Assembly (NCBI RefSeq): GCF_000020025.1
Contig: NC_010632.1
Location: forward strand, 180,001-212,000
DNA length: 32,000 nucleotides
Direction: 5' to 3'
Origin: Nostoc punctiforme PCC 73102
GTDB taxonomy: Bacteria > Cyanobacteriota > Cyanobacteriia > Cyanobacteriales > Nostocaceae
Part shown: positions 21,186 through 32,000 of the stretch, piece by piece
Layout: every line of letters starts with the position of its first letter
Position numbering within the stretch: the stretch's first letter is position 1
Notes under the pieces: generated by a model
The model's database searches: none
The model's input: only the letters and a program-made list of their open reading frames with translations
Told to the model about the DNA's origin: nothing
Position numbers and translations under genes: made by a program

Positions 21186-21779
21186 ATGCGTACTGACTAC
21201 GAATACCCAGAAAGTTTTTCCGCTTCGTCAACAGCAACCCTCTCACCTTCTCCAAAGAATGACAGGGCGAAAAAAGGCACACTTACACTCATGGGTGTGA
21301 CTGGTGTGTTGATGATAGCAGAGATGTCTGTCCACAATATATTGATGGGTGGATTTATGATTGCGTCTGCCGTGGTCATTGCCTTGCCGAAACAGTCACA
21401 AGCATTATTTACTAACTTCGATAAACTACAACGAAAGTATGGAGTTAATCTGTATGCAGTGTTATTTGCACTGTTAGCAGTAATTTGTCTAATTGATTTT
21501 GCGGCGGCTCCAGCTAATGCTCAGTTTTTCAATAATGCTCAAACTTGGATGTCCAACACTTTTGGTAATGCCGGCAATGGACAAACAGCAGCAGTTATCG
21601 CACTTTTTTTCAATGTATTGAGAGCTTTATTCCTATTATATGTTGGGATTAGTCTAGTTCAGATTATTCAATCTGCCCGGAACGATGAAGATTGGCAGAC
21701 ACTAGCAAGAACTCCATTAATCATAGTTATGGCAGTTTTTGTTGGAGATTTAATTACTGGTTTGATTGTTCAGGTTTAG
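21186..21779 (+). CDS. Candidate T4SS pilin precursor (VirB2/TrbC-like), first gene of the transfer operon
   Basis: The 197-aa membrane protein has a long leader that ends in a signal-peptidase-like site (LIDFAAAPANA-QFF). The roughly 90-aa C-terminal part has two hydrophobic helices separated by a charged loop (SARNDEDWQTLART), which is the VirB2/TrbC topology. It sits two genes upstream of virB4. AGGAGA lies 12 nt upstream of the ATG. The assignment rests on topology and position only. Confidence 0.45.
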   Translation: MRTDYEYPESFSASSTATLSPSPKNDRAKKGTLTLMGVTGVLMIAEMSVHNILMGGFMIASAVVIALPKQSQALFTNFDKLQRKYGVNLYAVLFALLAVICLIDFAAAPANAQFFNNAQTWMSNTFGNAGNGQTAAVIALFFNVLRALFLLYVGISLVQIIQSARNDEDWQTLARTPLIIVMAVFVGDLITGLIVQV

Positions 21780-21794
21780 TAAGAAAGCTTTTTA

Positions 21795-21842
21795 AGTTAT
21801 CAGTTATTGATAAATACGTATTTGAATTAATAGCTGATAACT
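21795..21842 (+). promoter_or_regulatory. Intercistronic stem-loop between the pilin-like and VirB3-like genes
   Basis: The arms are AGTTATCAGTTATT (21795-21808) and AATAGCTGATAACT (21829-21842). They form a 14-bp stem with 1 mismatch and a 20-nt loop. No U-tract follows. Confidence 0.4.
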
Positions 21843-21862
21843 CGTGATTAAATTCAGTAAAT

Positions 21863-22165
21863 ATGTCAAATAAACATGATTTTCGGACAGTAAATCGGAT
21901 TTTAGGAGAAAGACCAAGACTAGGGCCATTCCCTGCCGATCAAATATTTGCCTGGACATTAATAGCAGTAGTCAATGTATTTATCTTTAATTATCTACTG
22001 AAAACAAGTTGGTTAGGTACAGGATTAAGTATTGCTTGGGGATGGGCAACATGGTGGACAATTTCTACAAATAAAGACTTTTTCGGTAAATTCGTCAGCG
22101 TCCCTCGGATTAGTAGGGGATATATGAGATTTCAATCAATACAACAGAAGTCGGAAGAAAAATAA
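21863..22165 (+). CDS. Candidate VirB3/TrbD-like small inner-membrane protein
   Basis: The 100-aa protein has two hydrophobic segments (IFAWTLIAVVNVFIFNYLL and LGTGLSIAWGWATWWTI). It lies directly upstream of virB4, as virB3/trbD does. The assignment rests on size, topology and position only. Confidence 0.45.
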   Translation: MSNKHDFRTVNRILGERPRLGPFPADQIFAWTLIAVVNVFIFNYLLKTSWLGTGLSIAWGWATWWTISTNKDFFGKFVSVPRISRGYMRFQSIQQKSEEK

Positions 22166-29492: not shown

Positions 29493-30244
29493 AAAGCATA
29501 ATTAGCACGGTTACAAGCGGCACTCTAGCGTTAGCGATTGCCCTGACTCCAATATCCACAATTGCCGCCCCAGTTGTTCGCACTATCTTTCAATCAATGG
29601 CTAGTGGAGAGCAGGCCAAACTACAAACTATCAACGTCTGGAATGGTCACGGGGTAGCAATTTCTTTCTATGAAATTGGCGAGACAATTAAAAAAGTTTG
29701 GTTAGATGACCCATCGCAAATCCTGCTTGACACAGATGGTTGCTTAGAGGGACTGGATCAGAATTGCTCTAAAGGAGGCGCTGGGCTGATTCATCTGCGA
29801 CGGATCAAGAAAGTAAACATTCCCGGAATACCGCAAACATCTACCACTTTGTTAACAGTAATTACGCAGTCATCCTCTGGTGAGCGTAAAGCTTACAGCT
29901 TTCGGTTAGCAACAAGCAATGGCACTCCTAAATATAGTCAGGTGGCGATCAAGGCTGATGTGGCACGAGAACAAACAACCCCAAAACCTCAATTGCAATC
30001 ATTAGTTAAAACACAGCAAACAATTAACCAAATTCGAGGCGGTATTGTTGTCGCTATTAAAAGTGGATGGATTCTTCAGCAAGATGAACTACACCAGCGC
30101 TTGCAAAAGTTAATTGGTTATTTACAAGCAGGTGATGACATTTCTACTGCTACTAATAAGGCTTCTGTCTCTGAAGACTTAGTTAACAAATTAATTGCTT
30201 TGAATAATAATTCTGATAACTTAAGACAAGGTAATAGTTTATGA
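29489..30244 (+). CDS. Secreted protein, candidate VirB9/TrbG-like (N-terminal domain type)
   Basis: 251-aa ORF with a signal peptide (GTLALAIALTPISTIAAP). The segment VWNGHGVAISFYEIGETIKKVWLDDPSQILLDTDG ... GLIHLRRIK ... TTLLTVITQSSSGERKAYSFRLA resembles the VirB9/CagX N-domain pattern. ATGA overlaps occur at both ends. Confidence 0.4.
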   Translation: MKSIISTVTSGTLALAIALTPISTIAAPVVRTIFQSMASGEQAKLQTINVWNGHGVAISFYEIGETIKKVWLDDPSQILLDTDGCLEGLDQNCSKGGAGLIHLRRIKKVNIPGIPQTSTTLLTVITQSSSGERKAYSFRLATSNGTPKYSQVAIKADVAREQTTPKPQLQSLVKTQQTINQIRGGIVVAIKSGWILQQDELHQRLQKLIGYLQAGDDISTATNKASVSEDLVNKLIALNNNSDNLRQGNSL

Positions 30245-31440
30245 AATCATCTTTTCGCCTCAATGATAACGCCTTACGTTACCTAATCTTTTTTAGTTTA
30301 GTAGGTAGCTTATTGATTCATAGTTTCATAAGATATGAGCTATTGAACTCTTTTGTAGGCTTTTTGCTGCCCAAGGCTTCAGCACAAGTACCCATTGTAA
30401 ATTCTCCTAATGGGTTTACTCCTGATTGGTCGCGCTTTCGTTTTAGCGACATGATTATTTCTGTAAGTAGCAGTGTTACCTACCCAGGCACAAAAGGTAC
30501 AGAAAGCAGAACTTGGACGGCAGGACAAAGCATTAGCGAGTTTATGGAACTGGGAGATTTTGAAACACCTCAATTAGCAATAGAAAATTTAAATCTCTCA
30601 ATCATAGCTTCAGCACAAGGAATCAATTTAAGTGGGTTAACATTAGATGATTTTCAATTAACCCAATGGCAAACTTTACCATCTTTAACCGAAGCGATTC
30701 CTGGCTTAGGTAATAGAAATGTTACAAGTGTTAAACCTGTGAGCGATTTTTTGAGAAGATTTGGAATTACTGGGGGCACAATCGGTAACGCCAGCCGAAA
30801 TTCTCGTTTACGTGACGTTCCATTAGGAAGAGTAATAAATTTAAAAAATTACTCACTAACATCTATTTTCGACATTGAAAACACATCTATTAATAGATTT
30901 GGAAATTGGCAAGACTCCAAAATTAATGGAGTACCTGGACTATCAACTTTGACATGGGATAATTTGCCAGGACTACGAACACTTGACCTTTCATTTGTTG
31001 CCAAAGTTGATCTGCCATTGGGAGATATTGAAGCTAACCGCACACGCTCCATATCTGGTAGCTACCAAGATGGCTTTAATGTTCCCTGTCTACAAAATAA
31101 TTGCGCTCATACGGAAATGTCAGGCATTGGTAAGACTACTGGAACACAGTGGATATCTGGGAAATCCCAAAAGGTTAATGGTGGATTTGGCATTTTAAAA
31201 GCTCTCAATGGTGGTAAAGAGCCTACTGGTCGAAACCCCTTTGGCTCCAGCTTTAAGCAAGTAGTTTGGAATATTGATGAAGGCAGTGGTTCTGTCGAGA
31301 CTACTATGTTTTTCCGTATCTGCAAAACCATCCCCTTCATTGGTCGCACTTGCAGCCCCTACTTCATAGGGCCTGTACCTTTTATTGCCTACCAGGAGAA
31401 AGACCCTATCGTTCTTGGTCAACCTAATTCTTTACCTTAA
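30241..31440 (+). CDS. Membrane-anchored or secreted protein of unknown function within the T4SS operon
   Basis: 399-aa ORF with an N-terminal hydrophobic segment (LRYLIFFSLVGSLLIHSFI). Five Cys lie in the C-terminal half. It is translationally coupled on both sides. No family was recognised. Confidence 0.6.
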   Translation: MKSSFRLNDNALRYLIFFSLVGSLLIHSFIRYELLNSFVGFLLPKASAQVPIVNSPNGFTPDWSRFRFSDMIISVSSSVTYPGTKGTESRTWTAGQSISEFMELGDFETPQLAIENLNLSIIASAQGINLSGLTLDDFQLTQWQTLPSLTEAIPGLGNRNVTSVKPVSDFLRRFGITGGTIGNASRNSRLRDVPLGRVINLKNYSLTSIFDIENTSINRFGNWQDSKINGVPGLSTLTWDNLPGLRTLDLSFVAKVDLPLGDIEANRTRSISGSYQDGFNVPCLQNNCAHTEMSGIGKTTGTQWISGKSQKVNGGFGILKALNGGKEPTGRNPFGSSFKQVVWNIDEGSGSVETTMFFRICKTIPFIGRTCSPYFIGPVPFIAYQEKDPIVLGQPNSLP

Positions 31441-31441
31441 A

Positions 31442-32000
31442 ATGAGCAAATCTTTCAAAATAAATAGCGCTAATCCTCAAGGATTTCGATTTGAGCGATT
31501 ACAAAATCATAATGACGCAATTGGCAAGTACACTCACTCTCTTTTCACCCCCAATGGACTAACAGTTTTGTCCTTACTTGGTGCTTATATTTTGATGAGG
31601 GTATTTTTTGGCGATGGTAACAAAAAGAAAATCGCTACCTCTTATTGGGGTGGTGGTAAAGAAACTGCTACTGCTCAGAAAAAAGCCATCTTGCAAATCG
31701 TCAATCCCCAATGTGATAGTGCGGCACTTTACATTGGTAAGCATCAGGGAAAAGGTGGTGGCGCTACTTTCTATATACCTGACGTGCAACGAGGTACAGC
31801 CGTCATCGGCGCTCCCGGTAGTGGAAAAACATTCAGCGCCATCAACCCGATGATTTACTCGGCAATTGATCAGGAATTTCCATGTATAGTTTATGACTTC
31901 AAATACCCATCTCAAGCGAAAGTTGCTGCTTATGCTAAATATAAGGGCTATGATGTTCACATCTTTGCACCGGGATTTCCTGAATCTGAAGTCTGCAATC
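31442..32000 (+). CDS. Type IV coupling protein (VirD4/TraG/TraD-like ATPase), N-terminal 186 codons; continues beyond the window
   Basis: This ORF is absent from the track because it has no stop in the window. My translation from the ATG at 31442 is open to base 32000. It reads MSKSFKINSANPQG...GLTVLSLLGAYILMRVFF (TM) ...ATFYIPDVQRGTAVIGAPGSGKTFSAINPMIYSAIDQEFPCIVYDFKYP. Walker A codons are at 31808-31831. It starts 2 nt after the previous stop. Confidence 0.85.
   Translation, partial: MSKSFKINSANPQGFRFERLQNHNDAIGKYTHSLFTPNGLTVLSLLGAYILMRVFFGDGNKKKIATSYWGGGKETATAQKKAILQIVNPQCDSAALYIGKHQGKGGGATFYIPDVQRGTAVIGAPGSGKTFSAINPMIYSAIDQEFPCIVYDFKYPSQAKVAAYAKYKGYDVHIFAPGFPESEVCN

Follow-up and report, generated by a model that had tools for sequence, protein, structure and literature searches.

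The 32-kb stretch of DNA analysed here (hereafter the window; coordinates are window positions) corresponds to positions 180,001-212,000 of NC_010632.1 from Nostoc punctiforme PCC 73102. At 21186-32000, on the forward strand, it carries a gene cluster that an original prediction made from the letters alone had read as a ten-gene type IV secretion system (T4SS) or conjugation operon, likely of the cyanobacterial mating-pair formation class MPF_C. According to the listing of open reading frames (ORFs), this region holds nine complete same-strand ORFs followed by the first 186 codons of a tenth (referred to as g1 to g10; Table 1). Going from g1 to g10, the genes are separated by gaps of 83, 24, 1, 119 and 173 nt, then overlap three times by 4 nt, and are finally separated by a gap of 1 nt. 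All nine complete ORFs were full length when compared to their orthologues, and their ratios of nonsynonymous to synonymous substitution (dN/dS, against the orthologues from Nostoc sp. PCC 7120 and Nostoc sp. C052) ranged from 0.06 to 0.28, indicating that these are real genes under selection. Upon searching the ten products against Pfam and NCBIfam, TrbI was the sole family to pass its cutoff, weak matches were obtained for the VirB4 and coupling protein families, and seven of the ten products could be placed in no family of either collection. A promoter scan returned promoter-like sites at chance level and terminator-like sites below chance, and Rfam yielded no match within the window.

Table 1. 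Positions, strands and assignments of the ten cluster genes and of two genes upstream of them
Feature	Position	Strand	Product and assignment
g1	21186..21779	+	197 aa; candidate prepilin, VirB2/TrbC position
g2	21863..22165	+	100 aa; small membrane protein, VirB3/TrbD position
g3	22190..25024	+	944 aa; VirB4-type ATPase; probable start ATG 22205
g4	25026..25745	+	239 aa; secreted, predicted all-helical, VirB5/TrbJ position
g5	25865..26965	+	366 aa; polytopic inner-membrane protein, VirB6/TrbL-like
g6	27139..27930	+	263 aa; bitopic membrane protein, VirB8/TrbF position
g7	27927..29492	+	521 aa; VirB10/TrbI
g8	29489..30244	+	251 aa; secreted, VirB9/TrbG N-terminal domain
g9	30241..31440	+	399 aa; lineage-specific envelope protein; N-terminal anchor, LRR-like repeats, Cys-rich C-terminus
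g10	31442..32000	+	Type IV coupling protein, VirD4/TraG family; 186 of ~590 codons, cut by window end
Lipoprotein gene	19525..20202	-	Divergent from operon; lipobox LGAC; possible accessory component
CyRepA1-family Rep gene	11040..14816	+	Rep of the replicon; DUF3854 domain

A megablast search of PLSDB matched the region to 15 plasmids, all from Nostoc or Trichormus. The best match was pC052_A of Nostoc sp. C052 (NZ_CP040273.1), with 92.6% nucleotide identity over 100% of the region, and pCC7120alpha of Nostoc sp. PCC 7120 (NC_003276.1) matched with 80.3% nucleotide identity over 95% of the region (matched span 213130-224214). The ten products have colinear orthologues in both, with amino acid identities of 72-90% to those of PCC 7120 and 84-97% to those of C052. 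The MPF_C class was defined on the phylogeny of VirB4 (Guglielmini et al. 2012/2014). Because pCC7120alpha is the model of the MPF_C class, with eight MPF_C-specific profiles having been built around its VirB4 (Guglielmini et al. 2014; PMC4027160), the window carries an orthologue of the MPF_C type locus. On this model plasmid, alr7206 has been named virB4, alr7213 virD4 and alr7199 the relaxase gene (PMC8600333). The g3 product is 90% identical, over its full length, to that of alr7206, and the 78 relatives found with VirB4 are, where named, cyanobacterial. Named homologues of g1, g4 and g9 are likewise all cyanobacterial, a host range that fits the restriction of MPF_C to Cyanobacteria. With each of g1 to g10 having a colinear orthologue in the published model locus, these sequence comparisons place the cluster in MPF_C, as had originally been predicted; the class, its model locus and most of the links between its components and those of other systems had been published before.

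Conservation was sampled by searching a single genome of each species with VirB4, which returned 78 loci, nearly all from Nostocales and with VirB4 identities of 66-97%. By tblastn, order and strand of the ten products were retained in about 50-60 of these 78 loci, namely those of sufficient length, and the identities of the accessory genes dropped to 25-50% across related loci. The same gene order was also present on a Coleofasciculus contig. When compared to pC052_A, g4 and g6 displayed synonymous divergences (dS) of 0.63 and 0.99, against 0.11-0.19 for the neighbouring genes, and identities across loci were mosaic (e.g. 99% for g6 and 88% for g5 in loci L029 and L069), together pointing to allelic exchange among lineages within the operon. 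In two Trichormus variabilis plasmids (NC_007410.1 and NZ_CP047243.1), the matching region was ~2.3 kb longer and had a group II intron ltrA (reverse transcriptase/maturase) annotated under the match, so that their T4SS locus has received a group II intron.

Components assigned by homology and by position

For profile comparisons with hhalign, alignments of the MPF_C families served as queries and were each ranked against eleven reference families, each built from 7-11 sequences taken from R388, R46, R751 and another eight MPF_T plasmids. Compared to the 11 MPF_T VirB4 proteins, g3 yielded a match of 96.9% (E=1.8e-10, aa 347-814), and its sequence contains both a Walker A (GATRSGKS, aa 516) and a Walker B motif (IFFLDE, aa 761). 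RefSeq homologues of g3 begin 5 codons after the listed start, and no PDB chain was found by phmmer with this VirB4. Its scores against the NCBIfam models of the established classes stayed far below the cutoffs, with 38.7 bits against 567 for the MPF_F TraC model, 32.3 against 643.1 for VirB4_CagE (TIGR00929) and 18.9 against 520.6 for the MPF_G TraC model. The anticipated position of this VirB4 outside the well-studied classes is thereby supported with regard to MPF_F, MPF_T and MPF_G.

These scores also bear on the possibility that the cluster is an ordinary MPF_T system of the VirB/Trb-like kind, which we regard as hardly credible. While its gene order does resemble virB/trb and homology to TrbI, VirB9 and VirB4 is detectable, MPF_T membership is contradicted by the VirB4 score against TIGR00929, by the 22% identity of g3 to R388 TrwK, and by the absence of VirB11, VirB1 and VirB7 from the window and from 1.34 Mb of related loci. 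Moreover, seven of the ten products fall in no Pfam or NCBIfam family, and the orthologous locus has been placed in MPF_C by the literature (PMC4027160, PMC8600333). The label 'MPF_T' that PLSDB/MOB-suite attaches to both pCC7120alpha (NC_003276.1) and pC052_A (NZ_CP040273.1) speaks for this alternative; with the locus being the model of MPF_C, however, automated typing by MOB-suite mislabels that class.

Among the other products, the g10 family matched VirD4 at 99.2%. The available part of g10 contains a transmembrane (TM) or hydrophobic helix at aa ~33-56 and a Walker A motif (GAPGSGKT, nt 31808), and for the full-length orthologue of PCC 7120 the domains TrwB_AAD_bind, TraG-D_C and T4SS-DNA_transf were matched; taken together with these family and orthologue domains, the 186 N-terminal codons correspond to a type IV coupling protein (T4CP) in the sense of CONJScan. 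The g7 product matched Pfam TrbI (PF03743) at aa 301-520 (E=1.7e-16, 61 bits against a cutoff of 35) and VirB10 at 86.1% in hhalign, and features a TM segment (aa 53-71) followed by a Pro/Gln-rich linker. VirB4, the coupling protein and VirB10/TrbI, which the original prediction had called secure, are thus confirmed by their Walker motifs and profile matches.

All other genes had been thought to match only by size, topology, order and weak motifs, but this proved too cautious for g8. Its product starts with a signal peptide, and its family matched VirB9 at 95.2% (E=2.5e-8) over aa 1-146 only, a stretch that takes in the conserved T-x-L-x-V-x-T...R-x-Y-x-F block. The C-terminal 100 aa of g8 gave no match in hhalign, leaving the C-terminal domain of VirB9 unmatched. 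No CagX signal appeared when family members were scanned singly against Pfam (E<=10), and nothing was found in PDB with the family profile. Judged by their sequences, g3, g7 and g10 are VirB4, VirB10/TrbI and the coupling protein, respectively, and g8 contains the VirB9 N-terminal domain.

The assignments of g2, g4, g5 and g6 are of lesser strength. With at least 5 hydrophobic segments and VirB6 as the best of its 11 references (hhalign 36%, E=3.7e-4, 248 columns), g5 is suggestive of a VirB6/TrbL-like protein, a link that published HHsearch results support for MPF_C (PMC4027160). The g2 gene is always located between g1 and the VirB4 gene and encodes 1-2 hydrophobic segments at aa 23-51; VirB3 came out on top of its eleven references at a non-significant 1.5%, and a VirB3 homologue was reported in MPF_C by published HHsearch (PMC4027160). 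Similarly, g4 has a signal-peptide-like N-terminus and VirB5 on top of its eleven references (22%, not significant), and no Pfam or PDB match was obtained for it, family profile search included. The AlphaFold2 (AF2) model of g4 is all-helical but unreliable, with a predicted local distance difference test score (pLDDT) of 39. Finally, g6 contains a single TM segment (aa 29-47), and its topology and position fit VirB8/TrbF. No VirB8 signal emerged for g6 from the PDB profile search, the per-member Pfam scans (E<=10) or hhalign, and published HHsearch reports a VirB8 link in MPF_C (PMC4027160).

Overall, the profile-profile links published for MPF_C extend to VirB3, VirB6, VirB8, VirB9 and VirB10, with no VirB2 homologue (Guglielmini et al. 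2014; PMC4027160). In our comparisons the VirB6 assignment is suggestive, those of VirB2 (g1, see below), VirB3 and VirB5 are weak and draw on topology, position and top-ranked profile matches, and that of g6 as VirB8 is position-based, with topology and the published HHsearch beside it. The resemblance to the trb gene order that had been noted originally holds for the succession pilin-B3-B4-B5-B6-B8, which is common with MPF_T. The ninth gene is no homologue of any Trb or VirB protein.

The candidate prepilin g1 gave no match in Pfam, NCBIfam or PDB, profile search included, and VirB2 topped its 11 references at 8-10%, which is not significant. A total of 174 g1 homologues were found, and alignment of 19 diverse ones revealed an invariant A110-x-A112/Q113-F114 motif (the slash marks the candidate cleavage point) directly after the third hydrophobic segment. 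The preceding leader of ~112 aa, with its 2-3 hydrophobic segments, is conserved. Downstream of the A-x-A/Q motif follow ~85 residues in which a conserved charged loop (ARNDEDWQxLARTP) connects two hydrophobic helices, and the C-terminal tails are variable and Gly/Ala-rich. Since A-x-A/Q conforms to a type I signal-peptidase site, we infer that g1 is cleaved there and acts as a pilin. Its predicted architecture would then be that of the VirB2/TrbC/TraA pilins, but with an unusually long membrane-embedded leader.

The ninth gene and its hydrolase-bearing relatives

The g9 product belongs to no Pfam or NCBIfam family. A word-indexed search found 321 homologues, and an exhaustive profile search expanded the family to 587 representative clusters. 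In its AF2 model (pLDDT 63 overall), a helix at aa 9-31 and a repeat domain at aa 100-245 were predicted above pLDDT 90, and aa 250-399 were left unmodelled; the C-terminal domain is Cys-rich and very conserved. When compared to PDB, the g9 profile yielded a marginal match to leucine-rich repeat (LRR) proteins (E=0.01), and Foldseek with the g9 model, likewise run on PDB, returned only noise. The structure prediction that had been proposed as a check thus delivered a confident repeat domain for g9, but neither an informative Foldseek match for it nor a usable model for g4.

The relatives of g9 were more informative with regard to its origin. Among the 148 best clusters, 94 exceed 560 aa in length and bear the g9-like region N-terminally. 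Of 69 such long homologues that were scanned, 25 contained a Peptidase_M23 domain and 6 a GH19-like domain; furthermore, one long homologue is fused to T4CP domains and one carries Ntox50/CdiA_C toxin domains. In Coleofasciculus, an M23-bearing homologue of 817 aa is located between a NikA/relaxase/AAA group and a T4CP, and another g9 paralogue is encoded close by. Within 10 kb, the Nostocales loci were devoid of M23 domains, save for an M23 remnant in the most divergent locus, and g9 of the window and all its Nostocales orthologues end after the conserved non-catalytic region, with no recognisable hydrolase domain.

Because the long homologues bear M23 and GH19-like domains and the Nostocales forms are devoid of them, g9 would be a short version, apparently without catalytic activity, of a cell-wall hydrolase scaffold linked to T4SSs, and it offers the most plausible place for a wall-crossing function. 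Two other origins were considered and rejected. Truncation of a hydrolase-bearing gene does not agree with a stop codon 1 nt from the T4CP start and an M23 remnant confined to the most divergent Nostocales locus, and a Trb or VirB homologue does not agree with a protein that is lineage-specific and related to hydrolase-bearing proteins.

Missing components and proposed mode of transfer

Homologues of VirB11, VirB1, VirB7 and TraF were found neither in the window nor in 1.34 Mb of related loci, and no relaxase was found in the 32-kb window. For the window, this agrees with the original prediction, which had seen no VirB11-like ATPase, VirB1-like transglycosylase or relaxase there. In pCC7120alpha and many other loci, g1 is preceded at a distance of 5-6 kb by a same-strand module of mobV (Mob_Pre + DUF3991), an AAA ATPase gene and a DUF192 gene. 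Both the window and pC052_A have, in place of this module, genes for CyRepA1, a tyrosine recombinase (integrase), a RecD2-like helicase with a helix-turn-helix (HTH) and a lipoprotein, and in pC052_A the mobV module is found inverted, 14 kb beyond the T4CP gene.

This replacement might hint towards a non-autonomous or decaying module, in which the transfer genes are intact but relaxase and oriT have been separated or lost, leaving a plasmid that is mobilisable at best, or immobile. The repeats inserted upstream of the operon and in the g5-g6 gap (described below), as well as relatives with partial copies or a group II intron in the locus, would be in line with such decay. We nevertheless deem it unlikely, given that the nine complete ORFs show no truncation and evolve under purifying selection, that pC052_A as closest relative retains mobV downstream of its coupling protein, and that a stable backbone is suggested by the Rep-adjacent layout seen in about a dozen loci.

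We favour the view that the window contains an intact MPF_C T4SS cluster with its coupling protein, residing on a Nostoc-type CyRepA1 plasmid and most likely forming a conjugative mating channel. Each functional step is proposed by homology to characterised T4SSs. A relaxase encoded outside the window (in relatives MobV, with Mob_Pre and DUF3991, from the module with the AAA ATPase and DUF192) would nick oriT, after which the membrane-anchored coupling protein g10 would hand the relaxase-DNA complex to the channel, with the VirB4 ATPase g3 driving assembly and transfer. The inner-membrane platform would consist of g2, g5 and g6, and g7 (VirB10) and g8 (VirB9 N-terminal domain) would bridge the periplasm to the outer membrane. 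Cleavage of g1 at A-x-A/Q would produce a two-helix pilin, and g4 would be a secreted pilus-associated or adhesin-like protein. As a periplasmic or outer component, g9 may act at the cell wall, because it appears to derive from a scaffold that bears peptidoglycan hydrolase domains in other cyanobacteria. The system as a whole would operate without homologues of VirB11, VirB1 or VirB7.

A number of observations weigh against such a mating channel. The window contains no relaxase or oriT and cuts off the coupling protein at its end, and the 1.34 Mb of related loci contain no VirB11-type ATPase or lytic transglycosylase, from which it follows that energetics and wall passage may differ from those of the model systems. 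In the profile comparisons, homology to VirB8, VirB3, VirB2 and VirB5 was not significant, while structure prediction failed for g4 (pLDDT 39) and left the C-terminal domain of g9 unmodelled. Finally, the only transfer report for MPF_C dates from 1994 and concerns marker transfer between Anabaena megaplasmids (PMC12282955). Save for that report, a 2025 review describes MPF_C systems as being without functional studies, stating that they 'remain hypothetical' (PMC12282955), which corroborates the original claim that no member has been dissected.

Given this lack of experimental data on MPF_C function (PMC12282955) and the missing relaxase in the window, the T4SS might alternatively serve a non-conjugative use, such as delivery of proteins or toxins, release or uptake of DNA, or contact between cells or filaments, without transferring its own plasmid. 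The LRR-like domain of g9, of a kind common in proteins for host or cell interaction, and the Ntox50/CdiA_C toxin domains on one long g9 homologue would suit that purpose. Still, we consider this very unlikely, as the last gene of the cluster encodes a VirD4-type coupling protein, many related loci have a MobV relaxase module immediately ahead of g1, the clusters are situated on plasmids adjoining Rep and partition genes, and the operon is not accompanied by conserved effector-like genes.

Returning to the conjugative channel, a further and more doubtful possibility is that MPF_C constitutes a mechanistically distinct, pared-down diderm T4SS, in which two ATPases would suffice without VirB11, the pilin would be made from a precursor with a long (~112 aa) leader, and passage through the thick wall of cyanobacteria would be aided by g9. 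In such a system the LRR-like, Cys-rich g9 may be a catalytically stripped M23/GH19 T4SS component that recruits host wall enzymes or recognises recipients. These points (the two ATPases, the long pilin leader and the role of g9) were not found in the accessible literature.

Neighbouring genes and comparison with known systems

In relatives, the gene right after the T4CP gene encodes a 163-aa protein (e.g. L001 20302-20793 and L002 22470-22958; present in 35 loci) with a match to the MobA/VirD2 relaxase nuclease domain (PF03432, E=4e-9). Only one of its three motif-III histidines is kept, the other two being replaced by F and N, and a conserved N-terminal Tyr is absent. This protein may represent a degenerate accessory protein of relaxase fold. 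It is followed by a large DUF3854 protein (L001 20917-24600). The Rep of the window is itself a DUF3854 protein (E=5.8e-45), with 84% amino acid identity to the 'plasmid replication protein, CyRepA1 family' of pC052_A, and its DUF3854 region is 31% identical over ~350 aa to that of the post-T4CP protein. On the basis of this common region, Rep and the transfer-module protein are paralogues.

Between Rep and the operon, the 225-aa lipoprotein (Table 1) has homologues (39-96% amino acid identity) in 19 related loci, where they lie within ~5 kb ahead of g1 and are encoded on the opposite strand. The lipoprotein matched no known family and, from its recurrent position, may belong to the system, as a candidate entry-exclusion or outer-membrane accessory factor. 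The RecD2-like superfamily 1 (SF1) helicase at 16453-18570 (minus strand), with its N-terminal HTH, lies between the Rep and integrase genes and the operon, and has typeIV_RecD as its best PADLOC match (E=2e-66). In pC052_A it is conserved at that place, and four other loci match it in part. It could act in conjugation or replication, as the helicase of a relaxase devoid of one.

Two kinds of repeats were observed around the operon. Upstream of g1, 20413-20635 forms a nested inverted-repeat element, with tandem AAATTCA heptamers at 20413-20458, an inverted copy at 20614-20635, 12-nt arms at 20520-20531 and 20607-20618, and a hairpin with 18-nt arms at 20549-20586. Because no alignment to pC052_A was obtained for 20405-20776 around it, this element has the look of an insertion resembling a miniature inverted-repeat transposable element (MITE). 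Additionally, a 110-nt dispersed direct repeat (83% identity) occurs upstream of the operon (20233-20342) and in the g5-g6 gap (26963-27072). About nine close relatives have a copy at this g5-g6 position, pCC7120alpha does not, and the repeat may represent a small element of mobile or regulatory nature.

Further upstream, the window encodes a transporter of the ShlB/FhaC type for two-partner secretion (1220-2917), whose gene overlaps that of a CHAT-protease protein with tetratricopeptide (TPR) repeats (2844-5393), a Ser/Thr kinase with TPR repeats (6430-8295, minus strand) that matches the PADLOC anti-phage family PD-T4-6 (E=7e-89), and a STAND NTPase with NB-ARC/NACHT domains (8660-10201). 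The related T4SS loci contain no counterpart of the transporter or the CHAT protein, and a counterpart of the STAND NTPase in two cases. The regions 572-5393 and 8660-10201 may together be a conflict or defence island.

Cyanobacterial megaplasmids carry genes for natural products, symbiosis and defence, and their own transfer machinery has never been dissected. A compact, intact copy of such machinery beside an identifiable Rep could serve as an experimental model, as the original prediction had proposed. That Rep was indeed identified, as CyRepA1, but the window is not unique in this respect and adds little of its own, since pCC7120alpha in the genetically tractable PCC 7120 would serve equally well. 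The window is another member of a computationally defined and functionally unstudied class, which will not surprise the specialist, and the new points are small: the profile-level confirmation of VirB9, the predicted cleavage site of g1, the link of g9 to hydrolases, the rearranged position of the relaxase gene and the mistyping as MPF_T.

With regard to wall passage, the T4SSs of monoderm bacteria employ membrane-anchored multi-domain cell-wall hydrolases, such as PrgK of pCF10, CwlT of ICEBs1 and TcpG of pCW3. The long g9 homologues are alike in architecture, combining an N-terminal anchor with M23 and GH19-like, lysozyme-like domains in proteins encoded beside the coupling protein, whereas g9 of the window and its Nostocales orthologues differ from PrgK, CwlT and TcpG in being without a recognisable hydrolase domain.

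When compared to the MPF_T systems (Agrobacterium VirB/D4, R388 Trw and IncP Trb), homology extends to VirB4, the VirB9 N-terminal domain, VirB10 and VirD4, the order pilin-B3-B4-B5-B6-B8 is common, and the membrane topology of each product fits. The similarity is, however, near the detection limit, and in the window VirB10 precedes VirB9; furthermore, VirB11, VirB1 and VirB7 are missing, an extra lineage-specific protein of 399 aa is encoded, and the candidate pilin has its ~112-aa leader.

The nearest relatives of the cluster are those on the two Nostoc plasmids. pCC7120alpha has all ten genes in the same order and orientation, with the coupling protein last, and like the window it is without VirB11, VirB1 and VirB7. 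There, however, g1 is preceded by mobV-AAA-DUF192, a restriction endonuclease and an integrase, whereas upstream of g1 in N. punctiforme are found CyRepA1, an integrase, the RecD2-like helicase and the lipoprotein; the small dispersed repeats upstream of the operon and in the g5-g6 gap are present in the window and absent from pCC7120alpha. Except for 20405-20776 of the window, which does not align to it, pC052_A matches more closely still, its layout of Rep, integrase, helicase, lipoprotein and operon being identical to that of the window.

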